DNA of 64,000 nt from Azolla caroliniana (taxonomy: Eukaryota; Plantae; Polypodiophyta), in contig JBHGNT010000010.1 in assembly GCA_043228905.1 (NCBI GenBank), positions 9,796,001 to 9,860,000 of the forward strand, in the 5' to 3' direction. Under the pieces are notes generated by a model, which was given only the letters and a program-made list of their open reading frames with translations, was not told where the DNA came from and did no database searches. Each line of letters opens with the position of its first letter. The stretch's first letter is position 1. Positions 3 to 61,500 of the stretch are shown piece by piece. A program made the translations under genes and the position numbers.

Positions 3-1454
3 CGATACACGAAGAGGGGGCAATGGCTTGCCGACGAGGAAAAGAGGGTTTCGGAACCGATTCCGAAACCGAGAACCGGATTGGAAGACCATCAACTGAG
101 GGCTCGAGAGACTACAACCGAGAAGGCGATTGATGCATCTACGGTGGAGCAACTATTGAAGGAGATGGAGAATCTGAAGATCGCGATGGTGAAGAAGTCG
201 GATGACCGCCCCACAAGCTCCAAGTATACGGACCGACGGTGCATATGGTGCGATAGCGCCGAACACGATCGGAGGGATTGCGACGAGCATAAGGAGGCGC
301 TACGGCGGGATCTCATCTACTACGAGGGAAACCGGATTCATTCGATGGACTCTCGGAAGCCACTCCGACCGAACTTCCGTAAAGGCGGCATGAAGAAGGT
401 GCTCGAGGAGGAATTGGCGGCAAGAAGCAACTATGCGACAACCGCGGGAATATGTGTCGGGGAGTCATCGAGAGCAAAGACGTCTTTTTGGCCGGAAGTT
501 CTAGAAAACACTGAGAAAACCGACTCTAACGAGATCCGAAGCACCGCGGAAGGCGTCCGGGAAGCTACGGGATGGGAGTGCCCTGTCGACAAGAATAGCA
601 TATACGCCCTGTGTCAATTGCATAAGGTGTATGTGGACGAGAAACGACGACGCACGGAGGATGCGGCCGGGCCATCGAAGATACCGGAAAGCTGGAACTC
701 CGGAGGTAAGGGAAAAGAAAAGGCGACTCCGGCATTCAAGCTCGCCTCGGACATAGAACAACAAACCGACTTGAAAAGAGTGTTCGAGGAAAGAATCTTG
801 GATAGTCGGGTAGATTTCTCCCTTCGGGAGCTACTCGGAATAGCAAAGAAGGAGTTCCACGATCTTCTCGTGGATCTCGTGAAGCGAAAAAGACAAAGTA
901 CGGAGGAAAATGCTCCAAGGGTGAATGTGAACACCGTTTTAATGAACGACACCGAAGTGGAGGACGAAATTCCAAACTCCCACTATACAAGGCCACATTG
1001 GGCACGCGCGACTACGGAGACTCCGGTCCGAATCGGCAACATCAAAGAACCCGTGCTAGCATTGATTGATCACGGATCGGAGATCAACTTGATGTCCAAG
1101 GAGTTCTACCGGAAGGGGAAGTGGCCTATTAACACAAACCATGGATGGAAGATTCGGGCGGCCACCAAAGCAACGGAAGATCTATTTGCGGCTTGTCCGG
1201 ATGTGACGGTGAAGATCGGGGATGTCGAGATCGACCAAAATTTCTTCGTGCAAGATGAGGTTTCACATTCCGTCATCCTCGGCCAACCCTTTATCACGGC
1301 ATCACGGATGGAGACGAAGGTGCTCGATAGCGGTGCGGCTTTTGCGCGAATTCAGAGCCAAAACGGTGGGAAATCCGTCCAATTCCTAACGGTGCCGGCA
1401 AATCACGAAAGGAACAAGAGGGAACTCTTGTCCCAAGTGAGAATGGATTTTTAA
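3..1454 (+). CDS. gag: Gag-protease polyprotein, 5' partial (frame open from the window edge)
   Basis: Zinc knuckle CIWCDSAEHDRRDC; aspartic protease motif ALIDHGSEINLM and VILGQPF; stop TAA 1452-1454. Confidence 0.9.
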   Translation, partial: RYTKRGQWLADEEKRVSEPIPKPRTGLEDHQLRARETTTEKAIDASTVEQLLKEMENLKIAMVKKSDDRPTSSKYTDRRCIWCDSAEHDRRDCDEHKEALRRDLIYYEGNRIHSMDSRKPLRPNFRKGGMKKVLEEELAARSNYATTAGICVGESSRAKTSFWPEVLENTEKTDSNEIRSTAEGVREATGWECPVDKNSIYALCQLHKVYVDEKRRRTEDAAGPSKIPESWNSGGKGKEKATPAFKLASDIEQQTDLKRVFEERILDSRVDFSLRELLGIAKKEFHDLLVDLVKRKRQSTEENAPRVNVNTVLMNDTEVEDEIPNSHYTRPHWARATTETPVRIGNIKEPVLALIDHGSEINLMSKEFYRKGKWPINTNHGWKIRAATKATEDLFAACPDVTVKIGDVEIDQNFFVQDEVSHSVILGQPFITASRMETKVLDSGAAFARIQSQNGGKSVQFLTVPANHERNKRELLSQVRMDF

Positions 1455-1508
1455 AGCGGACTGTTGTGGAGTGGGGAAGTGATAGTCCGAGAAGCCCTGA
1501 TACCCCAC
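1445..1508 (+). promoter_or_regulatory. Predicted -1 ribosomal frameshift signal: GGATTTT plus H-type pseudoknot
   Basis: Heptamer 1445-1451 directly before the gag-pro stop; stem1 1457-1466/1480-1489; stem2 1471-1476/1503-1508; conserved in two other copies. Confidence 0.8.
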
Positions 1509-4500
1509 ACAGGAAGAAAACTCTCGGAGCAAAACATGTACGAATTGGTCCGGATGGGGCATCTACGTACACGACCATAACCGGAGGATTGAAGAAAGGA
1601 TACCGACAAGTGGAGGATAAGTTGCGGTCGGCATCAATAATAAAAGAAGATGAAGAAATCGTGGGGATAGTCGAAGAAGTGTTCTATGGGAGCACACTAC
1701 AACGACTTGAAGAACTTGCGGAAGATAAAAGCCAAGGGAACCGGGTAGTCCCGGTGGAATCGGTCGAGATGTACGAGATCATTGCGAAAATGGAGCCGGA
1801 TACGCTCCGCAAAGAAGAAGCAATGGTAAGTACGAAATACAAGACCGTGGAGAAGAAGGTAAAACCGGCCGCGGGACCACTACCCGCCGATAGCGAACAA
1901 AAGAGGAAAGAAGTCTCGGGAGATCCGACACTTCGGAAGACCGTGGATATCGGACATGCCTTCACGGATGAGACCCGGAAGAAACTTCGGATCGGTGGAG
2001 GTGGGTTCCTATTACAAAAAGAAGAAGAACGGTTTCGCGAGATGTTGGAGCAATACGGCAAAGCATTTGCATTTACATCAAGGGAGATAGGGTGCGTCGA
2101 TCCGAGAATAGTGGAGCCGATGGTGATCTTCACGATTGACCATGTACCGTGGAACCTGAAGCCGATTCCGGTGCCACGAGCGCATATTCCGAAAGTCATT
2201 GACTTGCTCAAGGAGAAGGTGGCGATGGGGATTCTAGAGCCATCAACTGCTCCGTACTCAAATCGATGGTTTACGGTTCCGAAGAAGAATGGGTCACTCC
2301 GATTTATCCAAGACTTGCAACCGGTGAATAAGGTCACGATCCGGAACTCGGGAGTCGGTCCGATAGTGGACGAATTTGCGGAAGCTTTTGCCGGTCGTGC
2401 GATATACTCCATCGGAGACCTATACTCGGGGTATGACCAATTCCAACTAGCCGTGGAGAGCCGAGACATCACAACCATGCGAACACCGATAGGATTAGTC
2501 CGAATGTGCACACTACCACAAGGGGCGACAAACTCGGTTGCTCATATGATGAACGCGATGAACAAGGTGCTTCGAGACTGCATTCCGGAGATAACGATGC
2601 CGTTCCTCGATGACATTCCGATGAAAGGATGCGCGGTAGAAGAAAAAGATGAGACTATGGATGATCGGGGATGCCGAAAGTTCGTGGTCGACCATATTCA
2701 TGATTGCGAGAAAGTGTTGCGAAAGCTAGAAGATGTGCACCTAACACTTTCCGGGGAGAAATCGGCATTCGGGCAAGAAGAAATATTAGTGGTCGGACAT
2801 CTATGTGGGCCCTACGGCCGAAGACCGTCACCAACAAAGATCGATGCGATTCAAGCTATGGAGGAAGTATGCGAGTCAACATCCGAAGTCCGAAGGTTTC
2901 TCGGTGCATGTGCATTCTATCACATATGGATTCCGCACTATGCACATATAGCGGACCCGCTCTACCACTTGTTGCGGAAAGGTAAGAAATTCAAATGGAA
3001 ACCGGAACACACCAAAGCCATGAAGAAATTGAAGAAGACACTTCAGAGGGCGGAAGCACTTAAGAAGCCGAGCTATGACCGACCGATCATAGTAACGGTT
3101 GATACAAGTCCAACCGGTATCGGGTGGGTCATCAATCAAGCCGACTCGGATGGTTCGCGGTATCCGATCCGATTCGGAGGAAAGGTTCTCAACGAAAGGC
3201 AACGTGGATATGCGCAAGTCAAAAGAGAACTGTGGGGAGTCGTGTCGGCGATAAAATTAGATCGGGATTATTTGATCGGAGCCGAAGTGGTGATCGAGAC
3301 GGATTGTCTTCCGATACTCGGGATGATGCGGTGTTGTACGATACCGGATGTAGCTATGCTAAGGTGGGTTGCATATGTCAAGTCGCTTAATCCGGAGGTT
3401 CGACACATCTCGGGGAAGGACAACGCGGTAGCGGATATGTTATCAAGGGCTCGGTTCGGAGACGACATAACCGAATCGGATAATGAAGAAGTTTCCGAAG
3501 ACTACTTCGCGTCGGAGCACATATGCCGAGTAAACGTAATCCGGGAATTCCAGGAAGAAGAATACGAGGGAGAAAGCTTGATGATCGGGAAGATGTTACA
3601 AGAGGCTGAGGATTCAACAAACGATAAAGGAAGAAGAGCCGAGATCCGAAGAAAGAAGAGACAAGTCCAAAAGTTCTTCTTGGAAAACGGATTAATATGG
3701 AGGGCGCCGAAAAGACCGGATGGTATACCACTTCGAGTAGTCGGGACAAAAGAGCAACGAAACCGGATAATGTCCGAGTTTCACGAATCCGATTGGGCTG
3801 GACACCGAGGAACATGGGCAACATTTGTGAAGATCAAGCAAAAATATTGGTGGAAGAAAATGTACAAAGATGTCGCGGAGTTCACGGAAAGCTGCGAGAA
3901 ATGTCAAGTCTACTCCGGGGTTCGACATCGAGATGAGTTACATCTGACATTCTCACCGACAATCAACTTCAAGTGGATGGTTGCCATAGTGGCCATGCCG
4001 ACCGGGATCGGACAAAAGAAATACTTGGTATTAGCTCGGGAAGATCTCACGAATCAAGTAGAAGGTCGAGCGCTTCAGAGGAAAACGTGTTCCGCGGTAT
4101 GCCAATTTCTTTTAGAGGAAGTATTTTGTAGGTATGGGTGCGTAGGACAAGTGATTGCGGACCGGGGAGAACTCGACTCGGACAAAGCTAGGGGATTCTT
4201 CGCCAAACACGGAGTTCGGTTATCGCTGACAACGGCATACAATCCGGAGGCCAACGGGAAAATCGAACGAGGACATAGTCCGATCGTGAAAGCACTTGCA
4301 AAGGCATGCGATGGAAAGGTGAAGGACTGGCCGCAGATGCTTCCGTATGCACTATGGGCGGATCGGACGACGCATAGCTCCATAACCGGTTACATGCCGG
4401 CAGAACTCATGACCGGACAAGCACCGGTAATGCCGACGGAAACCGCGATCGCAACATGGAGAGTGCTACCGTGGAAGGAAGAGATGAGCCGGGAAGAACT

Positions 4501-5080
4501 ACTAGCGGTCCGGATACGACAACTAGAGGGAAGACCGGCAGACATAGCGGAAGCAATACGCCGACAACAAGAAGCACGATTAAAGAACAAAAGTCAGTTC
4601 GACACAAAGCACCGACTACGACCGAGGAGGATTGAAGAAGGAGATTGGGTGATCGTCTATAACAGTAGTTTGGACCATCAACATACAACGATGCGGAAAT
4701 TCGCGAAAAGGTGGTTCGGGCCATACGAGGTTCGGAAAGTCTTCGACAACGGAACGTACCGACTGTCCGAGTTGGATGGAACAATACTACGAGTGCCTAT
4801 AGCCGGGAAGCGGGTGAAGATTTTCAAGAAGCGGACCGACGACAAACCCTATGTGATCCAAGCCAAGGCCGACTACGAGGAGCAATCAGACGAAGACCAC
4901 GGGGATGCGGGAAGCGAAGAACGTGAATTACAACTCATAGTCGACATAAGGGGAGAATCGGAGGAAACTTTGGGTGAAGACGGATATGGGGAATCGAGAA
5001 CTTTGGCATATACCGGAGAATGTGCGGGTTCGGAGGGGGCGAGTGTCGTAGTGTATTCCACACACTACGTGAAAAAGTAA
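1451..5080 (+). CDS. pol: Pol (RT-RNase H-integrase) in the -1 frame relative to gag-pro
   Basis: RT motifs LPQGATNS and FLDD; RH VDTSPTGIG...NAVADMLSR; IN HH-CC, ADRGE, IERGH and WFGPY; uninterrupted ORF whose stop lies inside the 3' LTR. Confidence 0.92.
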   Translation, partial: LKRTVVEWGSDSPRSPDTPHRKKTLGAKHVRIGPDGASTYTTITGGLKKGYRQVEDKLRSASIIKEDEEIVGIVEEVFYGSTLQRLEELAEDKSQGNRVVPVESVEMYEIIAKMEPDTLRKEEAMVSTKYKTVEKKVKPAAGPLPADSEQKRKEVSGDPTLRKTVDIGHAFTDETRKKLRIGGGGFLLQKEEERFREMLEQYGKAFAFTSREIGCVDPRIVEPMVIFTIDHVPWNLKPIPVPRAHIPKVIDLLKEKVAMGILEPSTAPYSNRWFTVPKKNGSLRFIQDLQPVNKVTIRNSGVGPIVDEFAEAFAGRAIYSIGDLYSGYDQFQLAVESRDITTMRTPIGLVRMCTLPQGATNSVAHMMNAMNKVLRDCIPEITMPFLDDIPMKGCAVEEKDETMDDRGCRKFVVDHIHDCEKVLRKLEDVHLTLSGEKSAFGQEEILVVGHLCGPYGRRPSPTKIDAIQAMEEVCESTSEVRRFLGACAFYHIWIPHYAHIADPLYHLLRKGKKFKWKPEHTKAMKKLKKTLQRAEALKKPSYDRPIIVTVDTSPTGIGWVINQADSDGSRYPIRFGGKVLNERQRGYAQVKRELWGVVSAIKLDRDYLIGAEVVIETDCLPILGMMRCCTIPDVAMLRWVAYVKSLNPEVRHISGKDNAVADMLSRARFGDDITESDNEEVSEDYFASEHICRVNVIREFQEEEYEGESLMIGKMLQEAEDSTNDKGRRAEIRRKKRQVQKFFLENGLIWRAPKRPDGIPLRVVGTKEQRNRIMSEFHESDWAGHRGTWATFVKIKQKYWWKKMYKDVAEFTESCEKCQVYSGVRHRDELHLTFSPTINFKWMVAIVAMPTGIGQKKYLVLAREDLTNQVEGRALQRKTCSAVCQFLLEEVFCRYGCVGQVIADRGELDSDKARGFFAKHGVRLSLTTAYNPEANGKIERGHSPIVKALAKACDGKVKDWPQMLPYALWADRTTHSSITGYMPAELMTGQAPVMPTETAIATWRVLPWKEEMSREELLAVRIRQLEGRPADIAEAIRRQQEARLKNKSQFDTKHRLRPRRIEEGDWVIVYNSSLDHQHTTMRKFAKRWFGPYEVRKVFDNGTYRLSELDGTILRVPIAGKRVKIFKKRTDDKPYVIQAKADYEEQSDEDHGDAGSEERELQLIVDIRGESEETLGEDGYGESRTLAYTGECAGSEGASVVVYSTHYVKK

Positions 5081-5802
5081 AAATAATATAACCGATTTAA
5101 TTACATATAAATAAATAAAATAAGAATATCAAGATATTTATCACCAATCAATAAAATAAGAATATCAAGATATTTATCACGTGCATAGGGCAAGATTTGA
5201 ACCTTATACCTCCACATAGCCAAATCTTAACTTTACCATTATGCTACCTTATCTTTAGTGTTCTACAAATAGATTTAATAACTATAAGTCCTTTATTTGC
5301 GCCTATCTTTATTAAAAGGTAAATCATGCATTTTTAGAGTGCGTGAATATTTTATAGAAAAACGCAAGCAACTAAAAAGTGACTCATGCACATCTAGCGT
5401 GCATGAGCACTATATTTAACAAATAAAAGCAAGGATTAGAAAAGCATCACATGCACATTTAGTGTGCATGAACATATTAGAAAAAAGCATGTAGCTATGC
5501 TTAGTCTCTCCCATCACTATATAAGGATGGGGAGCACATTGTAGTTTTTATTGATTATTTTTCTATAATGATCAATCAATCTAAAATATTCGTGGGATTC
5601 ACGAATTTGCTAAAATAATTCTCTCTTACTACCTAAATATTGACTAAATATACTAAACTCGTGGGATTCACGAGATTCTTATCTTATAACTCTTTATACC
5701 TATTCTTTACTAGCCTTATTTGTATTTTTCTTTCCTCCTAGTCCAAAACCTCGGCGGTTCCCACCCGACTCACGCAACGATCCAGAGCCGAAAGGCACGA
5801 CA
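5044..5802 (+). repeat. 3' LTR of gypsy A
   Basis: TGTCGT...ACGACA termini, upstream PPT, TATATAAG at 5518; homologous to 58554-59319. Confidence 0.9.
5181..5248 (-). ncRNA. tRNA-like Pol III promoter module inside the gypsy A LTR (not a functional tRNA gene)
   Basis: Minus strand: A-box TAGCATAATGG (5246-5236), B-box GGTTCAAATCT (5203-5193), tRNA-like 43-nt spacing, TTTT downstream. Confidence 0.6.
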
Positions 5803-5829
5803 CCGGTATGGGAACAGGCGGAAAGCAGG

Positions 5830-11317: not shown

Positions 11318-12187
11318 TGTCGTAAAGTAGGGAAGCTTCACATTAAAAGTCTACAATAAGATAAATACATACCTAAAATAAAAAGAATCTTGATAGTGTT
11401 TTATACATAAGGATCATATGAACAAAAGCACTATGATAATATTATACAATATATGTAGAAGCAAAAAAAGAGAAAAATATTGTATTACATGGGCAAGAGA
11501 GGACTTGAACCGACAACCTCCACCTTATAAGAATCTTGTTTTATTTGACCTAGCATTATTTAGTCTAACCCATGTAATGTACTACATGTGCACCATATAG
11601 CCCACATGCAAGAGCCTCTCTACATGTGCGCCACATGGCTCACATGTAAAACTATCCATTTCCAATAAAAGGAGAAGGGAGTATAGTCACAAGGGGATAT
11701 CAGGATATCAAGGAATCGAAATGGAAGAACTATATTGTATGAGATATCAATCAAATCAAATAGAATTATATTGTAAGAGACATCACAATAGAGAAAGAGG
11801 GAAATAAGGTCAACATACAAGAGAAGCTCTAACTTGGCGGTTGTGGTGCTCAACTCTCAACAAAAGGGAAGAGGTCTGAGTCCTGCTCTCATCGAAAGAT
11901 AGAAGAGAAGATTATGGTCTACTATCAAGAAAGAAAATAGTTGTCACCTTGAGAGACAAAGTACAAAGGTTCAACGACGCTTGCAACCATTTGTAACTCT
12001 TTCATCAAATAATTATAAATTTCTTATATTCCTTCAAAATCTTATCTTGTCATATCTTGTTGATCTCTATCCTCTCCATCTCTACTCTTTCGTCTCTTCC
12101 GTCCATAATCCCAGTGATTCCTTCCTCACTTTCACGTTATCTTCGGTGTACGCAACGCTACGCTTCTGGGCGAGCCACGCCACGACA
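11318..12187 (+). mobile_element. Solo LTR (gypsy-A-like termini) inserted in the RT of copia E
   Basis: TGTCGT...ACGACA termini; copia RT is collinear on both sides; TSD only partly preserved (ATGT/ATGGG). Confidence 0.75.
11490..11555 (-). ncRNA. tRNA-like module in solo LTR
   Basis: Minus strand TAGGTCAAATAAAAC...CTTATAAGGTGGAGGTTGTCGGTTCAAGTCCTCTCTTGCCCA; clear B-box at 11511-11501; T-runs downstream. Confidence 0.55.
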
Positions 12188-15129
12188 ATGGGGTGCTTGC
12201 TTGAGTCCATATAGTGGCTTCTTGAGTCGGTAGACTGCTTTCAGGTGTTTGCTCAATTCGAAACTGGGTGGTTGAACCATAAAGACCTCTTCTAATTCGT
12301 CTTGTAGGAATGCATTCTTTACGTCCATCTGGTGGAGGTGCCACCCTTTTGCCGATGCGAGAGCAATGAGTATCCGAACAGTCATCATCTTTGCCACAAG
12401 GGCAAAGGTCCCCTCGTAATCAACTTCATGTGTTTGAGCATAGCCCTTCGTCACGAGTCTAGCCTTGAAGCGATTTACCGAGCCGTTAGCATTATATTTT
12501 ACTTTATATATCGCTTTCTTATGTGGAGAATGGGGGACAAGATCCCATGTCTCGTTTTTGCATAGAGCTTGCATTCCGTCATTCATGGCTTCAATCCATC
12601 GTGGATCCTTGGCTGCCTTGGAAAAGGTTTCTTGTTCTCAAACTGTCACCACCTTCATCATAAAGGCATAATGATATGCCATATACTCATTGTAGCTGAA
12701 TCGGCTAACCGGGTTTTTTTCTCGGGTGGAGCGACGGAGCTTCTCGTTTGCAAAGACTAAGGCTTTCTTTGCTCCATTCGTCTAGATGATTGGAATGTCA
12801 AGGCCTTCGAACTCACTATCAAGGGAGTGAGTTGACTCGTTGTCAATCGGATCTTCGTATTCTGGCATTTTGGCCTTCCCTTTGTCGAGCTTCAGTCTCG
12901 GCCAAGATGTGCTTTGATCACGCGGGGGGTCTTGTAATCCACTCAGCCTTGTCGTAATCGGACTTTCTTCGAACATGTGCCTCAATCGTACTTTCTCTCG
13001 ATCGGCCGAATCCGAATTGACTGCAATCGGAATCGACGTCGTCTCTAGTTCGTACCATGATGCGGATTCGTTGAAAACGATGTCTCGACTCACCCGAACT
13101 TTTCGGGTGGATGGATTGTAACATTTGTACCCCATTTGTCCGAGTGAGTACCCTACGAGGATACATTTCTCCGACTTCGGGTCGAGCTTTTGTCGCTTCT
13201 CGTCGGGAATATGCACATAGGCAATCGAGCCGAATATTCGGATATAAAAATAGACACTTTTCATGACGGGTTACGTCGTGTACCCCAGAGGTTGTACATT
13301 TGATCATGAGATAGACGGTTGCGTTAGCCGCTTCTGCCCAGTACGATTTCGGCAAGTTCTTCTCGTTCATCATGGCCCTTGCCACCTCTATTATGAGTTG
13401 ATTCTTTCTTTCATTCGGCTTCTCCATTTTGTTGAGGTATGTGTCGACACAAGAATTCTCGACGCATTCCTTCCTTTCGGAGTTATGCTATAAACTCATC
13501 TGACAAATACTCCTTACCTCCATCCGATCGAAGGCATCGGATGTGCCGACTTGTGGCTTTTTCGACTTCATTTTTAAACCTTTGGAACTGTTCGAATAGT
13601 TCACTCTTCTGACGCATAGGATAGATCCAAGTGTGCCTTGAGAAGTCGTCGACGAAAGTGACATAGTTTCGGCAACCACCGAATGTTGTCGTTTGGGTTG
13701 GTCCCCACACATCTGAATGTGCTACATCTAGCATCCCTTTGCTCACATTCCTCTCTTTCGGGAATGGTTGTCCATGTTGTTTGCTGAATTGGCAGGCTTC
13801 ACATACACCAACTATCTCCTTTTGGGTAAATGTTGGGAGTCCGTTTACAACTCCTTTCGACTGCATGCCTTTGAGCTTCTGGAGGTTGATGTGGCCAATT
13901 TGTTTGTGCCACAGTTTCAAGTCAGTTTCGACTTTGAGACCTTTTGCGAACATGGATGACTTCACCTCGTTCAATTTGAGGATGTACATTCGACCTTCTC
14001 TTCGACCGTGAGCTACAAGTCGGCCTTCCTTCTCAATAAAGCACCTGTCATTATCGAATCGTACTTGCATGCCTTGTTCAACAAGTTGGCCAACCGGCAC
14101 TAGGTTTTTCGTGATGGTTGGGACATGCAACATGTTCTTGAGGTAGATTTGTTTTCCGTCATTTCCAAATGGGACATTTCCGATATGTCGAATCGAGTGA
14201 GTTGTGTCATCTCCGGTTTCAACATAGTGATGTCGATCGGGCTTTCTCAACTCTCGGAACCAATCTTCGTGAGACATCATGTGATTGGACGCTCCAGAGT
14301 CTACAAACCATACATCTTCTGGGGAAGAGGTGCTAGCCGGACCGGGTACTAACATCAAATGTACTTTATCCCTCATTACAAACATCCCGCCATGATCTTC
14401 ATAATCGGAATTCGTGGCATAGTTCATGAGTTGTCGGCTAGTCGAAGCCGACTCTCGTTTCTTCTTTCGGGATTCCTCTTTGTAGAAACCGAGTTTTCCA
14501 CAGTACCCACATTCAATCGGGTTGTGGCAATGGCTCAATCTGGCAGGATGGCTCCCCCTTCTGCCAAACTCCCTAGACTTGTTCCCATTGTCTTGCCATT
14601 GGCGGGGGTTGCGTTCTCGGGTCAGTTGAACCTGTCGCCCTCGGCTGAATCGACCTCTATTTCCTCGACCGAATCCTCTTCTATCATCCAATTGGGAGTA
14701 GAGCATCTGACCATCTGGTGCATGGCTCCTTTGTCGGTGTCATGGACAGTCACACCAAGCGCGGACTCAGACAAAGAATGGATGATGGGGCTATGAACTA
14801 GACGTGACGAGGCTAGAAACTCAAGAAGTGGGGGAACGATGATCTGAGGAACTTAAAACACTAGGAATGGCACAAGAGAATGAAGACAAAGATGAAGATG
14901 AACGAGACAAGATGGGGCGAAACAAGAATACTATATTGATGTTTCAATGACTAGTGTTGAATCCCTTGAAAGGGACCAAAGAGGTTACAAGTATTTATAT
15001 TGTGAGTCGAAGTACATGCATTAGAATATTCGAGAGAATATTCTAGAACCTTCTAGTTCTAGAACTTTCTAAAAACTCCTGGAACTTGAAATACATAATC
15101 TACTAAGATATACATACCATGACCATATA

Positions 15130-15197
15130 TTTGGACGTGTTGGTTAGAACACAACACTTGATTATATATAAGAGGTCAAGAGTTCAAATCTTGACAT
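15130..15197 (+). ncRNA. tRNA-like module in the F LTR (second copy ~24728-24795)
   Basis: TGGACGTGTTGGTTAGAAC...AGAGGTCAAGAGTTCAAATCTTGA, with a T-arm-like hairpin. Confidence 0.5.
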
Positions 15198-15294
15198 GAT
15201 TGTTGTCATGTTTGTGACATTATCCTCCCCTTTACGACCACCTTTCCGAAAGCATGGTGTAGGGTTGAGTTGAAAGAGAAAACCAAAGTACGTG

Positions 15295-15897
15295 GAGGAG
15301 TGAGTGACCATGAGTAGTCCTCACCAGAAATAGGAGCACGGGTGAACGTGAGCGACCATGTATGGTCCTCACCAGAGACTGGAACACCAAGGGGGTGAGC
15401 GACCATGTACAGTTCTCACAGGATACAAGAACACCAACATGAGCTTGAGCAACCACGTTGGTCCTCACCAGAGACTGGAACACCAACGTGAGTGTGAGCG
15501 ACCATGTGCAGTCCTCACCGGAGACTGGAACACCAACGTGAGTGTGAGCGACCATGTGCAGTCCTCACCGGAGACTGGAACACCAATGGACATGAGCGAC
15601 CATGTGCAGTCCTCACCGGGAACTGGAACACCAACGGGCGTGAGGACCATGTATGGTCCTCATCGGAGACACGAACACCAACGGGTGTGAGAGACCCTGT
15701 ATGGTCCTCACCGAAGACACGAACACCAACGGAAATGAGCGACCATGTGTGGTCCTTGCCAGGAACTGGAACACCAACGAGCATGAGTGGCCATGTGCGG
15801 TCCTCACCGAAGACACGAACACCAACAAACGTGAGCGACCATATGTCGTCTCACCAGGAACGCGAACACCAACGGGCGTGAGAGACCATGTACGGTC
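15295..15897. repeat. Tandem array of ~47-50-bp units next to the PPT of element F (continues at 23283-23390)
   Basis: About 12 diverged copies of GAGCGACCATGTGCAGTCCTCACCGGAGACTGGAACACCAAC. Confidence 0.92.
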
Positions 15898-16680
15898 TGA
15901 AGAGAACAGCGCGGAATATTGCTCGGCCACAACCGAGTCTTGAATCACTTCAATAAGAATGAAACACAGAAATGGGAAATAGAGAGTGAACGCACGTACA
16001 CACACGATTCGATAGAAAGTACACAAGATGTTTGCGTGGAAAACCCTAAATGGGAAAAACTACGGGAGCCCACAAACTCCGATCTATCACTATATAAGAA
16101 ATGTAAAATCAGAGTCTCGGAGGCAACGACCTCGAGCTCTGTATCTTTGCCAACTGGCGGTTACAACAGAGTATCACTCTATATCTCCTCTCTCCTGCTC
16201 TCTCTCAGTACAACATTTATGCACATACAACAATATGACAAAAACAACCTTACAAAGTGATTGCCCTAAGTCATAATTTATACTTATATAAACTTAGGGC
16301 TATTTACAAATATAGGCTCGATAGGCTTACTCAAAACATATTTACAAATATTTCTTCTCTTCGGTTCTCATCAGGTACATCTGATCCAGTTTCTGGATCT
16401 CTTCCGGTTCTCACCGGGTCCATCCGATCCAGTTTCCGGATCTCTTCCGGTTCTCACTAGGTCCTCTTCATCCATAATCGGATCCCATCAAGAGGGACCT
16501 ATTTCCTAACAATCTCCCCTTTCACTCCGGCATGGGATGTCTCGCCAGCCCGATCCGCTTTCAGCACACGTTCAGCTTGTCGATTGTCAACACCTTGGTC
16601 AGCATATCCGACTCGTTCTCCTCCATGTGGATCTTCGTCAACATGAACTCTTGATCGTCTACTCTATCCTGGATCCAGTT
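15898..16680 (-). mobile_element. Copia G remnant: RNase H end, PPT and 3' LTR (15898-16511)
   Basis: WIQDRV...KIHMEENESDMLTKVL; GAAAGGGGAGAT|TGTTAGGAAA; same family as 55318-55910. Confidence 0.8.
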
Positions 16681-19600: not shown

Positions 19601-19800
19601 TATCTTAGTTTCTTCTAATCTATTATTCTAGTAATCTCCTTAAGATAAAACTTTTGTAATCTCAATCTTGAGATGGATTGTAATCTTTCTTTCCCTTTAT
19701 TAATGAAATTTGTCAATCTTTCTCAGTTTGTATTAATTGTTTAATATAATGATACGAATCTGATATCTTCCGATCGGAGGCCCCGGGGTCCTGCCTCAAA
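16681..19800 (+). mobile_element. Probable Tat/Ogre-like element fragment H: LTR-like 16770-17134, tRNA-Arg-type PBS, antisense degenerate ORF
   Basis: TG...CA segment followed by TGGCATGCCCGTGGGAC; minus-strand CYYCRQEGHYNNQC knuckle plus coiled-coil ORF fragments (17275-18860); AACCGG repeats at 18870-19070. Confidence 0.55.
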
Positions 19801-19829
19801 GTTCACGTATCCTCGTCATATTTTCGCAA

Positions 19830-22800: not shown

Positions 22801-23282
22801 CTTGCCCGCCGATTGAGCCACCAACACGTATACCGACTTAATCAAGGGCACACACGACAGAAGCGAAAGAAGACACTCCCAAAAACACATGTAACACGGA
22901 TATTCAATTACAATGACAGTGACAATTACAACGATGGCAACCCTACAGAGAATGATGATGGTGGAGGAAAGAGCTCAATTCCCAGTCCGACAGCACTTCC
23001 TCCTCCCAAAACACGCGATCCCCTCTCATCCCTTTTTCTTCTCCCTTTATAGCCCCAGGAGAGAGCCATTTATAGATTGTTAAATCATTGTTATTCTCTG
23101 TCCTTTCGGACAGAGATCCTCTTCGATTCCCTACTTATTGAATTAGTGCTACCTAGGATAATTACATTGCCGGCCTGTACTTATCTATGCATGTAAATAT
23201 ACTAGGGCATGTGCCCGTGTGTAAGGGCTAGTTCACACACACCATCCGTCGATTCCTCCTAGGGACGGTTTTCTCCACGACA
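19830..23282 (-). mobile_element. 3'-truncated Ty3/gypsy element I (distant relative of A)
   Basis: 5' LTR ~22783-23282 (TGTCGTGG...CTGACA); gag fragments; PR ALIDHSSEINLM; pol start up to PWNLKTIPV. Confidence 0.88.
20472..20540 (-). promoter_or_regulatory. Predicted -1 frameshift signal of gypsy I
   Basis: GGATTTT|TAG; stem1 GGGCTATCA/TGATAGTTC; stem2 GGTGTGG/CCACACC. Confidence 0.75.
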
Positions 23283-23749
23283 ACGCGAACACCAAAGAGT
23301 GTGAGCAACCATGTGCGGTCCTCACCGGAGACACAAACACCAATGGATGTGAGCGACCCTGCACGGTCCTCACCGGGAACTAGAACACTTGAAGACTATG
23401 ACGGCTAGGCAAAGTAGTCTTGATGACGACAACAAGAGTGTTGAAGATGATGATTTCGAAGACGAAGCAATGAAGGCAATGATGTTGACGAAGTGACTTT
23501 GGACGCAATGACTTTGACTATGGAAATGATGGACGCAGAGAAAGAGATGAAGACGATAAGAAACATAGAGATCGAGGTGTTGAGGTTCTGAAGAAACACA
23601 GAGACACATATACAAAGAATGATAGAAAACACAAAGATAGGGATGAAGGTGATAGGAAACGCAGAGAAAGTGACGAAGATAATAAGAAACACATAGATAG
23701 AGATGAAAACGGTAGGAAACACAAGGAGAAGGATGACAATGACAAAAAA

Positions 23750-24480: not shown

Positions 24481-25554
24481 GGAGAGGAAAGACAAAGACG
24501 ATGATAAAAAGAAACTAAGAGATAGAGATGGCGAAACGAGAATACTATATTGATGTGTCAATGACTGATGTTGAGTCCCTTGAAAGGGACCAAGGAGCTT
24601 ACAAGTATTTATATTGTGAGTCGAAGTACATGCATTAGAATATTCGAGAGAATATTCTAGAACTTTCTAAAAACTCCTAGAACTTGAAATACATAATCTG
24701 CGAAGATATACATAACATGACCATATATTTGGACGTGTTGGTTAGAACATAACAATTGACTATATATAAAAGGTCAAGAGTTTAAATCTTGACATGATTG
24801 TTGTCATGTTTGTGACAGTCGGGCATGATTTTCTTCCAATATCCAGTGATATGGACTGAAGGTCGAAAAATGAGGGAGGATCCTCCCTTGCAAGAATGGC
24901 CGATCTGATCGTACCAAATCGCGATGTTAAGCCGTCGAGGCATATTTGCACCATTTCATCATCGTTGATGACGACGTTGATCGATCCAAGGGCATCTTGA
25001 TCGACATGTCCCTCTGTTGCATATTGTTTAACTCCTATCAGAGTTGGCGCTTACATGCAGTCATGTTGGCTGCGAAAATCTTCTTGAGATTGCCCCAAGC
25101 TTCTTTCAGCATTTTCGACTCTCGAATATAACCGAGCATCTGATCATGAACGCATGATGCAAGGCAATACAACACACGGATTGCAGCCTACTCCCATGCT
25201 AGGTAGTCGGTGTGTGTTGGGTTGGGTTGCGTTTCATGAATTCCTTTGATATAGCTCCAATAACCTTGTCCGACAAGGTATTGATGCATCTTGTATTCCC
25301 AAGATGCGAAGTTTGTCCTGTCGAGCTTCTTTGTAGGAAGAGCACTTCCCATCTAAGTGTTCATGATGTCGATTTCTTCTCTGTTGCTTGAACCGGTTTT
25401 GTTGATCGTCGGTGTGTAGCACAACACAGTTGAATAATCTTGATCAGACAACCACATGCTCCGGTACCATGTAAAGAGTGAGAGACGTAGATGGTATTGT
25501 GCAACGAAAGTGAGCTTTTTTTTTTTGTGTGTGTGTGTGTGTGTTCACGTAAGG

Positions 25555-50570: not shown

Positions 50571-53500
50571 ATCAACCATGCTTTCCCCGCACAAGGAACT
50601 GAGGAGAGAGTTCAGGCGCAAAGAAAAGGGGAAGAAGAAGATGCCGGAGTACGACACCGGAAGAGAAGAGTCAGATCGGAGCGAATCTTACTCCGGAGAC
50701 GGACCTTCAGGAACGAAGTCCGAGTCAGCCAAGAGGGCCTTGCAATCGGCGAACGTGAAGTTACGTTGATCGACCCACTAGAAGAACCCCATAAAAAGGT
50801 ATGGATATAACGAGTATATGGCGCATCACTATGCGTACATGAGGAAAGTGGCAGAGGTGCGTGAGTCAAAGAGCTACGCCGAAGCGGCAGAGGAAGTGCA
50901 TTGGTGTGCCACAATGGAGGAAGAAATGCGGGCACTTGATACCAATGATACATGGAACCTGGTTGACCCTTCCCGACATTACAAACTGATCGGTTGCGAG
51001 TGGGCGTACAAGGTAAAGTATAATGTTGATGGTTCGGTCAACCGGTACAAGGCCTGGTTAGTGGCCAACGGGTATGCGTAGACCCATGGAATCAACTACG
51101 ACGAGATCTTCTCTTCGGTAGCGAAGATGACAATGGTTTGTGTCATGCTGGTAATTGCCGAGGCACAGGAGTGGCATCTTCACCAAATGGACGTGAAGAA
51201 TGTGTTTCTTCAAGGAGACTTTGAAGAACAGGTCTACATGATCCAACCCCCGGTTTTTAGTCGGTAGTGTGCCGACTCAAGAAGTTACTTTATTATGGCT
51301 TGAAGCAAGCCCCCCAAGCTTGGAATTCGAAGATCACGCACCGGTTGCGTAAGATGGGGTTTGTGGCCTCGGAGTCCGACTCTTCGCTATTCATCCATAA
51401 CGGTCTAGACGATTTTGTATGTATCTTGTTATACGTGGATGATCTAGTCATCACTGGACCTGAACTTGTTGAAATCGACCAAGTGAAGTCCCAACTGTCG
51501 GATGCATTCGAAATGAAGGACCTAGGGGACCTTCATTACTTCCTCAGGATCGAAGTGATCCACACCCGCGATGACATGTTGCTCTCACAACGACACTATG
51601 TGTTGAATATGTTGTACAAGTTCGGCATGACGGATTGCCAACCAGTCTCCACACCCCTGAACCGGAACCTGAAGCTTCATCTTGACCCCGGATCGACCTA
51701 CGATGAGAAATGGTTCTGACAAATTTTTAGAAGCCTTTTTTATTTAACAATCACCCTACCCGACATTAGCTATCTGGTCAGAGCAATAAGTCAATTCATG
51801 TAGAAGCCAACCGTGGAGCACCTTCAGTGCGTGCACCGAATACTGAGGTATGTTGGCGGCAGTAAAAACTGGGGATTGTTATACCGACACGGTATAATCG
51901 AAAAGCTAGTCGGATATACGGATGTCGATTGGGCTAGTGATCTGTCGTTTTGTTGATCCACTTCCGGTTAAATGTTCTCCCTTGGTAGCGTGGCTGTTGC
52001 GTGGAGTAGTAAAAAGAAACCGATTGTGGCTATATTGAGCACTAAGGCTGAATATTGGGGCGCTATTGTTGCCAACTATGAAGCTATCTGGCTTCGGCAA
52101 CTGCCGCAAGACCTCTGGATCGAAGCACCAACTCCGATCCCAATCTATTGCAACAATATGAGAAGCATGCAACTGGCCAAGAACCCCGTGTTTCATGCTC
52201 AGACAAAGCACATAGAAGTGCACTATCACTTTGTGCGCGACCGGGTCCTGAACGGTGAAGTCGAACTCCGGTATGTCCAAACGGATCGACAAGTTGCTGA
52301 CATCTTCACCAAGGCCCTTGGGACCAACAAGTTGCAACATTTTTTGGAGATGCTTGGTCTTCAACATTTCGACATGCCACACTTGAGGGGGAGAACCGGT
52401 ACTGATACGGGGAGAACCGGAACCGGAATGGAAATCGGGAAAGTAGGAAATGGCACCGGACAAGCAGCCAGAGAGAAGGAAACAAATGAAGCAAGGGGAG
52501 ACAAGAAGAAAAACGGAGCCAAGTCGGCTGATGAAGTCGGCACATCTTAACAAGTTGAAACAAGCGGCGACAACGGTAGAGTCAAGAAGGACAGAGCCGT
52601 TCAGAAGGAGAAGGCCAAGACCCGGACGTGGTACGATGTTGTGAAGGGTCTGAAGGTTGATGACAAATTGGAGACAACCAATTCGGACAAGAGCTGGTAT
52701 GAATCAGAGGCACCCGATTAGGAAGAGGAGTTCGATTTGAAGAAGCCGAATCAACTAAAACCCAAACGAACGAGAAGGCACTGACACGGATGTACTGACA
52801 AGTCGAGAAGTGCCGAAGTCGCAACAACGATAAAGCTGAAATGGGCCTTATGAACAGACAAGCCGATCGACAAGGTCGATGTCACGACACAATGACGTCA
52901 AATACGTAGTTAATGAAGATTGAACCTGCAACCTCATATCTACAAGATGTCATGCTCAACCATTTTGATATGAGCATGCATTTGTATAATGGTTTGGTAT
53001 TATATAGTCTAGCAGATAGTATATTTCAGAACCAGAATATTCTAGTCGTTCGTAAATTCTTGAAATATTGTATGGCATATTCTAGATGAGTATATTCTAG
53101 AGATATTCAATCTCGAAACATCTATAAATACTTGTAAACTCCTTGGTCCCTATTAAGGGATTCAACACCAGTCATTGACACATCAATCTAGTATTCTCAT
53201 TTCGCCTCATCTTTGTCTCCTTGATCTTTATTTTTGTCTTCATGCCCTCATGTCTCTCACAACATCTAGAGTTCCTAGCCACGTCACATCTAGCTCAAAG
53301 TTCATCCATCACACGTAGCCCAATCATCTATGCTCCGTCCTAGTTCACGTTTGGTGTGTCCGTGACAGTCGAGAGGCGCGGAACCAGATGGGTTGTGGAA
53401 AGCGGGACCGGATGAGTCGATGAGCACGAGCAAGGTGGGAAGACGCCAAGAGGAGCCAGAAGGAAGGACTGACAGACACAAACACCACGATCCGACCTCA

Positions 53501-55949: not shown

Positions 55950-58553
55950 AATTAGTCGAAGCCGACTCGAGGCTGTGAGAACAAGATGCATGAGTCAGAT
56001 CAATATGATCTAAGATGTCTTCAGCAAAGATATTTGTCTTGAGAGCATGACGAATACTATTAATAATGCTTGAATCTAGCGGAGTATCAAAGACTGTAGT
56101 TGCTTGAAGTAGTGCAGGACCTAGGATTGCATGTTTTCTATTATCCAAGGTCGGATCACCATGAAGAGGTGCTAGATAGGAATGTCATGATAATGCATCT
56201 ACTTTCCCTTGTTGCTTTCTTGGACAAATTGTAATCTTGAAATAGAAATGAGTAAGAAAATGTGTCAATCGTGCACTCTGGAAATAAGTGAGGTTTTTGT
56301 GATCACTAAATACAGTTACTTGATGGGGAGAACCTTCCAAAAAATGTCATCATTGTATAATGGAATAAATTATAGTAAATAACTCCTTGTAATGTACCTC
56401 ATAGTTTATCTCGGCAATGTCAAATTTGTGTGAATGGAAAACCATTGGATGTAGTTTCCCATCATCTCATTGTTGTGACAATATACTACCAAGTGCAAAA
56501 TCTGATGCATCCACTTCAATAATAAATGGTTTTTGCAAATCAACATGACCTAGAATAGGAGTGGATATAAATGCCTTCTTGAGATCCAAAAAAGCATTAT
56601 TTGCATCTACATTCCAAACAAATTATTGGTCCTCCTTTGTGAGTTGTGTGAGAGGTAGAATAAGTTTTGAGTAATCTTGTATAAACTTGAGTTAGAAGTT
56701 GTGAATCATAGAAAACATTGCACAACTTGCACGGATCATGGAGTCTCCCACTCCAACACTATTTGGACTTTAGTTGGATCCATAGAGAATCCTTTAGGAG
56801 AGATAACGTACCCTAAGAATTCCACCTGTTTGCAATCAAAACTCCACTTCACTAGTTTTGCATAAAGGCCATATTCCAATAGTAATTTTAGTACTTGATG
56901 AGCATGAGAATCATGCTCCTTTTGTGTCATTGAATAAAACATTAGATCATACAGATATATGATAAGAAAGATGTCTAAAAGATCTTGAAAAACGTCATTC
57001 ACCATATGCTGAAAAATTGTTGGTGCATATGTGAGCATAAATGGCATAATTGTATACTCAAAATGCCCATATCGGGTGCGGAAAGTTGTTGTCATGGACA
57101 CACCAACCGCGGACTCGGACGGAGCACGGATGATGGGGCTAAGAGCGTGGAACTTAAGAAGTGGGGAATGACACAAGAGCATGAAGACATAGATAAAGAT
57201 CAAGGAGAGAGATGGGATGAAACAAGAATACTAGATTGATGTGTCAATGACTAATGTTGAATCCCCTAAAAGGGACCAAGGAGGTTACAAGTATTTAAGA
57301 TATTGTGAGTTGAAGAACATGCATTAGAATATTCTGGAAAATATTCTAGAACCCTCTAGAACCTTCTAGTTCTAGAACTTTCTAGAGGTATGTGACTAAA
57401 GAGTATTTCTAGATCAGGTACATTATATACAAATAAATGCTCATATCAAAATGGTTGAGCATGATATCTCGTTGAGTGAGGTTGCAAGTTCAATCTTCAC
57501 TAACTATGTATTTTATGTTAGTGTGTCATGACAGGTGTCTTCCATTCATCACTTGGACGGATCCATACAAGGTTATATGCACCTTGTAAATCAATCTTTG
57601 TAAAATATTTTGCACCATTAATCTGTTCTAAAAGACTAGAGATCAAGGGGAGTGCATACCTATTCCTGATAGTAACTTCATTCAAACCCCGGTAATCCAT
57701 GACTAGACGAAGTGAACCATCTTTTTTCTTTACAAAGAAATGGGTGCACCAACTGGAGATTTTGAGTGTCGAATGAATCAATTTGCCAAAATTTCCTCAA
57801 TATACGCTCGAAGAACCTCAAGCTGAAATGGTGAAATATTATAGATTGATCCCCATGGTGGCTCCTTTCCTGGTTGTAAATCAATGTGACAATCATATGG
57901 TCGATGATGTGAAAGTGTATTAGCTTTTATGTTATCAAAAACATCGACATAATCTTGGTACTTCATCAGAAGATGAATTTTTTATTCTTTCCCAACGATA
58001 TGGGACTGCTTCACTAATACTACAAATAAAAACATTTATTCCTTTCGTCCTTCCTTACGTAATTGATGTAGTGAAATAGTTGAAATTCTTTGAGTAAATG
58101 CTTGAGGAATCAAATTATCTTGTTGGTGATACTTGATTTTTCTCTTTTTCCAGTTGATTTTGGGTTATGCAGTTCAAACCACGACAACCCTAGGACAATT
58201 GGATATTCAGGGTTACTAATTATATTAAAAGATATTACGCATGAGAAATTATTTTGTATCACATGAATTGGCTCAAACTCCTCTATGATATTTCTAGAAG
58301 CAATGGGGAGACCATCAATTACTACTATAGAAGTTGCGCAAGGAAGTTTTCTTAGAGATACCTAATGAATTCAAGCAAAATCTCTATCCATGAAGCAAGA
58401 ATTAGCCCTGGTATCTAGGAGTGATGGAACATGAATTGGATGATTACTTGCAATACTAACTTCTGTTTGAGCTAAGAACACCTTGCTAACTTGCTTAGAA
58501 GAAAATGGGACCACTAATGGGCTACATAGATATGTGATTGTCCAACCAAATGA
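55950..58553 (-). mobile_element. Highly degenerate chromovirus-type (Tcn1/Tf1-like) gypsy pol fragment
   Basis: [51 protein letters not shown]. Confidence 0.85.
57090..57533 (-). mobile_element. Solo LTR of the F family
   Basis: TGTCATG...CATGACA; TSD GTTGT/GGTGT; splits DEWKT|TFRTRYG; tRNA-like module at 57440-57498 on the plus strand. Confidence 0.88.
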
Positions 58554-61500
58554 TGTCTCGCCTTTGGGCACCGGATCGTTGTGTGAGTCCGTTGGGAACC
58601 GTTGGGGTTTTAGACTGGAAGGATGAGGAATTTGAGGCAAATAAGAATATAAGATTGAAAGAGAGAGATGTAGAAAACCTCGTGAATTCCACGAGTGTAT
58701 TATATTAGATTAATCAACCCTTAGAACCCTAATAGTATATTGGAATAGATTAGAAAAGATAGATTGAAAAATCGTGAATGACACGAGTATAGTACATTAG
58801 ATCAATATTTAGAAATCCTATTAAAACCCAAGAATCAACAACCACAATACTTATTTTTCTTCCCCTCATATAGTGATGGAAGAGGCTAAGTATAGCTTAC
58901 CACATGACAAGCATCAAGCTTTCTCTAAAGTTCATGCACACTAGATGTGCATGAATCCATTTTTCTATCATGGTTTTTCTTCTAATTATAGTGTTCATGC
59001 ACGCTAGATGTGCATGAATAGCTTTTTCTATCATGTGTTTTCTTCTAACTAAAGTTTTATGCACGCTACAGGTGTATAAGTAGCTTTTTCTAGAATTTAT
59101 ACTTAAGGATAAGGTTTTCTAAATGTTAAATCCATAATCATATTACTCATAATGATTTGGTACAATGGTAAGGTTTGGGTTTGTTTACATGGAGGTATAA
59201 GGTTTGAATCCTGCCCCATGCATGAAACATATCTTTTAGTAATTTCTTCTATTTCTATATTTTTATTTAATCGGGTATTCCATATGTTTTTTACATGGTG
59301 TACAAATTACACTACAACACTTGCCTCCTCTGAACCTGCACATCCTCCGGTATGTGCCGAAGTGGCCAGTGGTTGTTACTTTGTCTCTTCCCCTATATTG
59401 ATTATTAATTCTAACCCACTTTCTTTGCTTTCCACACCTCCATGATCCTTGTTCGATTGCTCCTCTATGTCGAGGTTGTTTAAGATTATGTAGGGTTTGG
59501 CATCACTTCACTTCTTGAATATCTTCACCCGCTTCCCCGCTATAGGCACCCGTATTATTGTTCCATCCAGCTCACATAGTCGGTAAGTTCCATTATCGAA
59601 TACCTTTTGAACCTCGTATGGTCTAAACCACCTTCAAGTGAATTTCCGTATCGTTTTGTGTCGATGATCCAAACTGTTGTCGTATACTATCACCCAATCC
59701 CCTTCTTCAATCTTCCATGGTTGAAGTCGGTGCTTTGTGTTGAATCGACGTTTGTTCTGGAATCACACTTCTGGTTGTCGGCGTGTCCCTTTCGCTAAGT
59801 CTTTTGGTGTTCCTTCTAGTTGTCGTATCCGGACCACTAGAAGTTCTTCCCGACTCATCTCTTCCTGTCATGGTAGCGCCATCCATGTCACAATTGCAGA
59901 TTTCGTAGGCATTACCGGAGCTTGTCCGATCATAAGTTTTGTTGGCATATAACCGGTTACTGAACTATGCGTTGTGTGATCCACCCATAGTGCATACGGA
60001 AGCATCTGCGACTAGAGCTTCACCCTTCCATCACACACTTTTGCCAGTGCTTTCACGATTGGACTATGTCCTCGCTCGATCTTCCCGTTGACTTCTGGAT
60101 TGTATGTCATGGTTAGTGTAAACCGTACTCCATGTTTGGCGAAGATTTCCTTAGCTTCATCGGAGTTAAGTTCTCCCTAATCCGCAATCACTTGCCCTAC
60201 GCACCCGTACCTGTAGAATACTTATTCCAAACGAAATTGGCATACCGCAGAACATGTTTTCCTTTGTAACGCCCGACCTTCGAATTGGTTTGTCAGATCT
60301 TCCTGAGGTAGCACCAAGTACTTCTTTTGTTCGATCCGGGTTGGCATGACCACAATGTCAACCATCCATTTGAAGTTGATTGTCGGTCGGAATGTCGGAT
60401 GTAATTCATCTCGGTGTTGAACTCCAGAGTAGATTTGACATTTCTCACAGCTTTCCGTGAACTCCACTACATCTTTGTACATATTCTTCCACCAATAATT
60501 TTGCTTGATCTTTGCAAATGTCGCCCATGTTCCCCGATGTCTGTGAAATTAAGATATTATTTGTTTTTGTTGTTCCTTTGTGCCAACTACCCGTAGTGGT
60601 ATGCCATCCGATCGTTTCGGCTCCCTCTAGATTAATCCATTGTTCAAGACGAACTTCCCGACTTGTCGCTTCTTTTTCTGAATCGTGGCTCTCTTTTCTT
60701 TATTATCTGATGATTCCTCGATCTCTTGTAGTGCTTTACCGATTATCAAGCTTTCTCCTTTGTATTCGTCTTCCCGGAATTTCCGGATTACGTCAACCCG
60801 ATATATATGCTCCGAAGTAAAGTTGTATTTCGAAACTTCTTCATTATCTGATTCGACAATGTCATCTCCGAACCGTGCCCTTGACAGCATATCTGCTACC
60901 ACGTTGTCTTCTCCCGAGATGTGTCCTACCTCTGGATTAAGTGACATTATGTATGCAATCCATCTTAGCATAGCCACATCTGGTATCGTGCAACATTGGA
61001 AGACAATATGTTTCGATCACCACTTCGACTCCAATCAAGTAATCCTGATCTGATATTATTGCTGACACGAGTCCCCATAATTCTCATTTAACTTGTGCAT
61101 ATCCGCGTTGCTGTTCGTTGAGAACCTTTGCTCTAAATCGAATCAGATATCGTGAACCATCCAGATCGGCTTGGTTGATGACCCAACCAATCCCGGTTGG
61201 TATGATCGGTCGGTCATAGTTTGACTTCTTAAGTGCTTCTGCCCTCCGTAGTGCTTTCTTGAGCTTCCTCATGGCTTTTGTGTGTTCCGGATCCCATTTG
61301 AACTTCTTCCCCTTTCGCAGTAGGTGATAGAGTGGGTTTGCAATGTGTGCATAATGTGGAATCCATATGTGATAGAATGCACATGCCCCAAGGAACCTGC
61401 GGACTTCGGATTGTGACTCACATATTTCTTTCATGGCTTGGATCGCATCAATCTTGGATGGTGACGGTCTTCAGCCGTAGGGCCCACATAAATGTCTTAC

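Follow-up and report, generated by a model that had tools for sequence, protein, structure and literature searches.

Putative tRNA-derived A-box/B-box modules in the LTRs of Phygy-like gypsy elements from Azolla

Retroelements of the window and their modules

The window, a 64,000-nucleotide stretch of an Azolla caroliniana contig (JBHGNT010000010.1, positions 9,796,001 to 9,860,000), is rich in repeats and contains pieces of copia, gypsy and LINE elements together with a partial WD40 gene, whose frame has its best named match in Adiantum (42%). A gypsy element with an unbroken pol frame lies at its left end (Table 1). The frame upstream of pol (3-1454) contains DUF4100, and no match to a chromodomain was found in the 1248-aa pol product. 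A second, decayed gypsy copy, with its LTR at 58554-59319, shows 78% identity to the first. The seven LTR copies considered here form two groups, group A with three members of ~760-870 bp and group B with four of ~480 bp, and not the several families that had been proposed for the window. The group B element at 14738-24817 spans 10 kb including nested insertions, is flanked by a 5-bp target site duplication (TSD), CCGAC, and has no coding sequence of its own that we could find. It holds nested gypsy and copia pieces and tandem arrays of 48-bp and 96-bp units, the latter growing from the 3' part of the 5' LTR; no primer binding site (PBS) was seen. Another tandem array, of 187/230-bp units, lies within a LINE-like region at 47497-49654.

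All seven LTRs carry a module composed of an A-box, an AGGT motif and a B-box. The original prediction had named seven such segments, and each is present inside an LTR. Orientation relative to the element, judged from the polypurine tract (PPT), the termini and homology, is antisense for 7/7 modules, which lie 22-240 nt from the LTR 5' end. A TTTT run inside the LTR follows four of the seven, as had been noted, and the invariant C of the B-box is kept in five. At the single B-box mismatch of the module at 52916 (position 52917), the box letter prevails in three runs, at 91%, 93% and 68% of contig depth. Short, repeated palindromes lie in the part of U3 that separates the module from the TATA box (5374-5470 and 58920-59090); they recur across families and may be transcription-factor sites.

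Table 1. LTRs, modules and associated features of the window. Bits are scores against the profile matrix described in the text; spacing is A-box to B-box in nt.
Feature	Position	Strand	Remarks
pol frame of gypsy element with 3' LTR 5044..5802	1331..5080	+	1248 aa, unbroken; RT, RNase H, integrase
Group A 3' LTR of gypsy element	5044..5802	+	TGTCGT...ACGACA termini; PPT immediately 5'; TATA-like box ~5518
A-box/AGGT/B-box module	5193..5246	-	spacing 43, 0 mismatches, 35.7 bits; first TTTT 5156-5153
Solo LTR, group A architecture	11318..12187	+	nested in copia element
Module	11501..11558	-	17.5 bits; B-box perfect, A-box decayed; TTTT 23 nt past B-box
Group B 3' LTR	14738..15219	-	482 bp; PPT from 15220; element 14738-24817
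Module	15133..15191	+	spacing 48, 23.6 bits; TTTT absent within 60 nt
Group B 5' LTR of element 14738-24817	24530..24817	-	3' part merges into 96-bp tandem array
Module	24731..24789	+	spacing 48, 18.2 bits; invariant B-box C lost
Group B solo LTR	52880..53367	+	nested in copia element; 5-bp TSD GTCGA
Module	52916..52970	-	spacing 44, 19.5 bits; one B-box mismatch (52917)
Group B solo LTR	57090..57533	-	flanks ACACC / ACAAC
Module	57444..57497	+	spacing 43, 17.0 bits; TTTT 13 nt past B-box
Group A 3' LTR of second, decayed gypsy copy	58554..59319	-	
Module	59158..59211	+	spacing 43, 31.6 bits; invariant B-box C lost; TTTT 22 nt past B-box
CG-containing TSD/flank sites	5803-5807, 14733-14737, 52875-52879		also in loci L002, L032, L040, L046, L058, L066, L069

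The modules were scored with a profile matrix trained on 12 modules, all from loci outside the window. The seven sites are the top seven distinct matches in the 64 kb, with scores from 35.7 down to 17.0 bits. Shuffled windows (n=100) gave 0.26 matches at 16 bits or more, and the 95th percentile of their maximum was 19.0, so that the three weakest sites carry weight only when taken together. For five sites (11501, 15133, 24731, 52916 and 57444) the surrounding LTR has no BLAST match among the 80 related loci described below; their recovery is therefore independent of homologous training rows. A plain consensus scan allowing up to 4 mismatches listed 6/7 sites amid dozens of chance rows. Modules scoring at least 16 bits are present in 7/8 clade-type LTR copies of the window and in 0/9 copia LTRs. 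The two LTRs of the copia element at 39373-43512 each contain an A/B look-alike of 12.1 bits and spacing 44 (39725-39779 and 43437-43491, minus strand); we rejected it as chance level, since shuffled windows give 1.96 matches each at 12 bits. This copia element is young, has a 1030-aa frame and apparently lacks most of RT.

Carriers, distribution and origin of the module

Relatives were gathered by the integrase C-terminus, blind to the module, giving 80 loci, of which 72 are plant-type contigs. Among viral contigs no relatives were found, and six matches to the PBS pattern lacked any gag or pol match. Three related contigs came from prokaryote genomes; neither of the two scanned carried a module. 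Plant-type gypsy integrases (57-59% identity) are present in contigs of two bacterial genome assemblies, L089 and L090, the former with the clade's PPT and an LTR start, and are probably contamination. Contigs from DNA runs with two organism labels matched the first LTR (5044-5802) in numbers of 3779 and 3029, with the module covered, and the group B module is also present in contigs of a third organism label. Among the variants listed for the first LTR none changed the boxes, but an expected A-box difference was missing as well, and we set this listing aside. Of two runs that we presumed, by guess, to be RNA, one yielded a single contig matching the first LTR and the other yielded none; 2 contigs matched the group B LTR, and no contig spans a module.

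The carrier elements measure 6-7 kb, code for gag and pol and contain a TATA box. In six module-bearing contigs of high coverage (L001, L004, L006, L017, L018 and L026), the frames for gag (702-730 aa) and pol (1158-1241 aa) are intact. The nearest named pol relatives are from Riccia sorocarpa (54-73%) and Adiantum nelumboides (68%), and the PBS resembles, by eye, the tRNA-Trp rows of Kojima's supplement (PMC10886601). CG occupies flank positions 2-3 in 7/8 host-side LTR flanks of the loci, in agreement with the NCGN target preference given for Phygy; the target site is duplicated over 5 bp, as CCGAC and GTCGA in the window. Insertion of the clade at such CG-containing sites is often into the coding regions of other retroelements. 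Phygy is a non-chromovirus Ty3/gypsy clade described by Neumann et al. 2019 (PMC6317226). Its resemblance to the carriers lies in short elements filled by the polyprotein, the lack of a chromodomain match, a non-Met PBS and a CG-containing target. In contrast to the carriers, Phygy has no tRNA-like LTR module mentioned in the available text of that paper, and the likeness is one of traits. The carriers appear to be Phygy-like gypsy families plus one non-coding family; for the latter, group B, we infer from its termini and CG-containing TSDs that it was mobilised by the Phygy-like clade.

Thirty-seven LTR starts formed 16 U3 clusters. An antisense module is found in U3 of six of them (the main cluster, in 17/17 copies, L004, L006, L069, the window solo LTR and L026, which has two in tandem), and a sense module in three (L009/L011, L016/17/21/31 and L018). 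Only remnants are found in two (L037 and L041), and five are without a module (the L007 3' LTR, L008, L024/25, L050 and the window LTR at 22674-23282). A sense module also lies 3' of the TATA box in four LTRs (L005/L006, the L007 5' LTR, L025 and the L026 5' LTR). In two more distant relatives the module score is below 9 bits. Antisense orientation near the 5' end, proposed as a general trait, is therefore true of the window copies but does not define the module. All ten U3 modules from the loci (7 antisense, 3 sense) have TTTT 5-29 nt past the B-box, with AAAA in 1/10, and so possess the oligo-T terminator of a type 2 polymerase III promoter. In the sense U3 modules this run is reached within 14-29 nt of the B-box; 3/4 of the post-TATA modules lack TTTT in the 30 nt after it.

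A quick integrase tree, drawn without three short rows (L040, L067 and L069) and subject to possible LTR swapping or chimeric contigs, places the sense lineages on separate branches with antisense lineages in between. Closely related integrases are joined to unrelated LTRs in three sets (L016, L021 and L050; L024, L025 and L026; L006 and L007), and the two LTRs of L007 differ, as do those of L026. Assembled repeat contigs may be chimeric, and these joins suggest either frequent swapping of LTRs or U3 regions or chimeric assembly. Other repeats in this contig set contain similar modules too, three in L064 and single ones in L058 and L036, so that a source for capture was at hand. The L064 repeat (1500-2100) is a non-LTR repeat with long palindromes and three modules spaced at 44 nt, one of them inverted relative to the other two, scoring up to 40.9 bits; it is possibly a foldback or Helitron-like element bearing a like promoter.

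The boxes stand at a fixed spacing. The consensus used to scan for pairs agrees with section 3.5 of PMC10886601 and with PMC4228148. When up to 2 mismatches are allowed, the plant-type loci and the window contain 24 A+B pairs spaced at 43 nt and 13 spaced at 44 nt, representing 35 distinct sites, compared to 0-3 at any other spacing from 25 to 79. Shuffles (n=20) gave 0.45 pairs at 43-44 versus the 37 observed. The same A-to-B spacing, 43-45, is seen in 6/6 short-arm E. coli tRNAs, and the boxes are thus arranged as in a type 2 polymerase III promoter. Among 15 module types, the rows of which are not independent, tRNA positions not used to call the modules are enriched (U33 in 11, A38 in 12, A44 in 11, G45 in 13, G46 in 14 and U47 in 14), with no enrichment at positions 32, 37 and 48. 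Pairing in the cloverleaf stems is near chance: 47/105 for the acceptor, 28/60 for the D and 30/75 for the anticodon stem; the T stem has 45/75 pairs, counting two box pairs. ARAGORN found 0 tRNA genes in the window and none in 40/40 loci, and Rfam gave no tRNA match at E up to 10 in either. We therefore rejected identity as a tRNA gene, and the earlier description of the segments as tRNA-shaped does not hold. A shared fold was sought in the predicted 78-109-nt RNAs and none was found, with folding z from +2.2 to -3.6. Taken together, the spacing, the enriched tRNA positions and the chance-level stems indicate, at the level of sequence, that the module is tRNA-derived and has kept its promoter letters while the cloverleaf has gone.

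Conservation and decay of the boxes

The view that the boxes outlast the sequence between them was borne out between homologous LTR families. In pairs that share flanking U3 (L001, L002, L003, L004 and L069), 23-24 of 26 positions in the boxes and AGGT are identical (88-92%), compared to 9-11 of 20 in the spacer (45-55%). The contrast has p of 0.0006-0.013 in 4/5 pairs; the closest pair shows no difference. Among lineages at 69-78% integrase identity, key box columns have conservation of 0.73-1.0 and the spacer 0.10-0.50, a cross-family identity that is partly circular because modules were called by their boxes. Within the main family, however, the boxes stand only modestly above the rest of the LTR. 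In 15 aligned copies the two boxes are at 0.85 and 0.83, the spacer at 0.72, other U3 at 0.68-0.77 and the TATA region at 0.79; LTR parts outside boxes and spacer range from 0.67 to 0.80. No indel falls between the boxes in 15/15 copies, and one falls in the A-box block.

The main family also shows decay. The invariant C of the B-box has become T in 9/15 copies, and one contig lacking it has 104x coverage and retains 29/35 other CpGs. The B-box CpG survives in 4/15 copies versus 58% for other CpG sites; this faster decay indicates that the box sites were methylated and unprotected. In yeast, loss of the invariant C severely lowers binding of TFIIIC (PMC4228148). The CpG decay and the loss of this C together indicate that most copies were methylated at the box, and that at least one sublineage amplified while lacking a canonical B-box.

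These observations bear on whether the module is a mere passenger. On that reading, heads of tRNA-derived SINEs or tRNA pseudogenes landed repeatedly in AT-rich U3 and U5 and multiplied together with families that did well, and the boxes seem preserved since selection had worked on the donor before capture. Such a history would suit the patchy presence of the module, its mixed orientation and position, the similar modules in non-LTR repeats, the fast CpG decay and a sublineage that amplified without the invariant C. It does not readily account for LTRs with common flanking U3 in which about half of the spacer has diverged and the boxes have not, or for an inter-box length that is unchanged in every main-family copy with a single change in the A-box block. 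Nor does it sit well with the window's copia LTRs, which are free of the module, or with the ends of the module: an A8 tail is absent in 8/8 families tested, and direct repeats around the module, 8-nt and AT-rich, occur in 2/8 families only. We consider the passenger reading somewhat unlikely. The same ends, and the presence of the module in every copy of the main cluster, led us to reject insertion of a SINE2, in keeping with the original prediction of a retained LTR component and no sporadic SINE insertion; descent of the module from an old SINE is possible. The module is real and recurrent in these LTRs, and probably under selection.

Possible roles and comparison with known systems

The explanation we tentatively prefer, by analogy with yeast, is that the A/B-box unit of Phygy-like LTRs may serve as a docking site for TFIIIC at the DNA level, keeping the adjoining polymerase II promoter open and shielded from read-through. 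TFIIIC would bind the LTR unit as it does in yeast, and would load TFIIIB, with "extra-transcriptional" effects like those at yeast tDNAs; the neighbouring polymerase II promoter of the LTR would then stay open and protected against read-through, and the 78-109-nt RNA from the module would be a by-product. The modules face either way, vary in position, can be duplicated in tandem, and have kept their boxes while losing the RNA shape, all of which fits a product-independent TFIIIC/TFIIIB site beside a polymerase II promoter. In yeast, TFIIIC sites and tDNAs phase nucleosomes, form boundaries and block read-through near polymerase II genes, and ETC sites bind TFIIIC without TFIIIB (PMC4228148). 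Yeast tDNAs are also able to silence nearby polymerase II promoters (PMC4228148), so that the sign of the effect on the LTR promoter could go either way. A vital role is argued against by the U3 types without a module (5/16), the frequent loss of the B-box C and a CpG decay like that of methylated DNA; the module may rather aid a few master copies without being essential, most genomic copies being methylated and decaying.

A different role would be through a product, a polymerase III RNA of ~80-110 nt acting on the element RNA or on silencing, comparable to the miRNA cassettes in the U3 of foamy viruses (PMC7104284). Retention of the A-box alongside the B-box, the co-orientation of the T-run with the module in all ten U3 cases and the U3 precedent itself would fit such a product. 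We nevertheless think it unlikely, given that the predicted RNAs have no common fold or sequence, that products of sense and antisense modules would be unrelated, and that most post-TATA modules have no nearby TTTT.

Ty3 integrates just upstream of tDNAs. The module could similarly be a landing pad, recruiting TFIIIB and drawing other retroelements to integrate just upstream of it. One locus is suggestive, a single ~240-bp insertion (L047:1021-1258) whose start lies ~20 nt before the A-box, close to where polymerase III is predicted to initiate. None of the 7 window modules, however, has an insertion directly upstream, and the clade itself targets CG-containing sites, inside copia and gypsy coding regions; this role seems very improbable.

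Least credible to us, and extremely unlikely, is a reading in which the module, as in Helenus, drives transcription of the element's genomic RNA. Box conservation of this same kind is reported for Helenus (PMC10886601, section 3.5), and sense modules do exist here. Against this, every window module faces away from its element, the sense U3 modules soon run into their T-run, and the elements are of full coding length with a TATA box of their own.

According to the reviews and papers in the literature searched, as far as their available text goes, autonomous plant LTR elements are polymerase II units, and polymerase III promoters are confined to the miniature Cassandra and Helenus; a 2025 review names Cassandra as the only plant exception to polymerase II transcription (PMC12786077). 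The original prediction knew of no description of such modules for plant gypsy LTRs. We likewise found none for autonomous plant gypsy elements in the openly accessible literature, and no such module is described in the available text of a fern genome paper (PMC6786969), a sugar-beet paper (PMC13570524) or a meeting report (PMC12859917). The prediction had, however, overlooked the closest precedent, Helenus. That work (PMC10886601) analysed TRIMs only, yet remarked that "not a few" Repbase LTRs contain tRNA-like pieces, so that the trait may have been seen and left unstudied.

Full-length families in which tRNA promoter boxes persist although they have been inverted, duplicated and relocated point to exploitation of TFIIIC, at the DNA level, by a selfish element. 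If TFIIIC does bind, this would be an anti-silencing or anti-read-through strategy of which we found no description in the literature searched, and the LTRs would offer a natural series for the study of plant tDNA-type boundaries, with and without the module, in both orientations, and with the B-box intact or mutated. A wider claim, that an autonomous clade of plant retrotransposons has more than once equipped its LTR with the promoter of a tRNA gene to act as a portable chromatin boundary, so that every fresh copy would come with a TFIIIC/TFIIIB site keeping its polymerase II promoter open and solo LTRs would seed the genome with many tDNA-like insulators, we regard as possible but doubtful. 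Even if the module is only a passenger, one LTR clade would have captured tRNA heads recurrently.

Four known systems invite comparison. Yeast tDNAs and ETC sites resemble the role proposed here, since they bind TFIIIC and, independently of any product, influence nucleosomes, boundaries and read-through around polymerase II promoters, but they are host chromosomal sites and not parts of mobile elements (PMC4228148). The Cassandra TRIMs likewise have a long-kept polymerase III promoter in a plant LTR; theirs, however, is a 5S-derived type 1 promoter of non-autonomous elements and drives their own RNA (PMC10886601, PMC12786077). Helenus, or TRIMp3 (Kojima 2024, PMC10886601), comprises non-coding TRIMs of 311-1263 bp, the sole plant case being a 325-bp element of Selaginella with its tRNA-like part in the element's sense (supplement to that paper). 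Helenus shares with the elements described here a tRNA-derived LTR sequence with conservation centred on boxes A and B and, in most cases, no working tRNA. It differs in being short (up to ~1.3 kb), non-coding and transcribed by a sense module, whereas the carriers here are 6-7 kb long with gag and pol, and their modules are mostly antisense and terminated. The same paper argues that the autonomous partners of Helenus must use polymerase II. The foamy viruses, finally, are autonomous LTR elements with a genome transcribed by polymerase II, and they too have A/B-box units in U3; those cassettes yield miRNAs from conserved hairpins, with no tRNA origin described in the available text (PMC7104284), whereas no common fold was found among the LTR modules.
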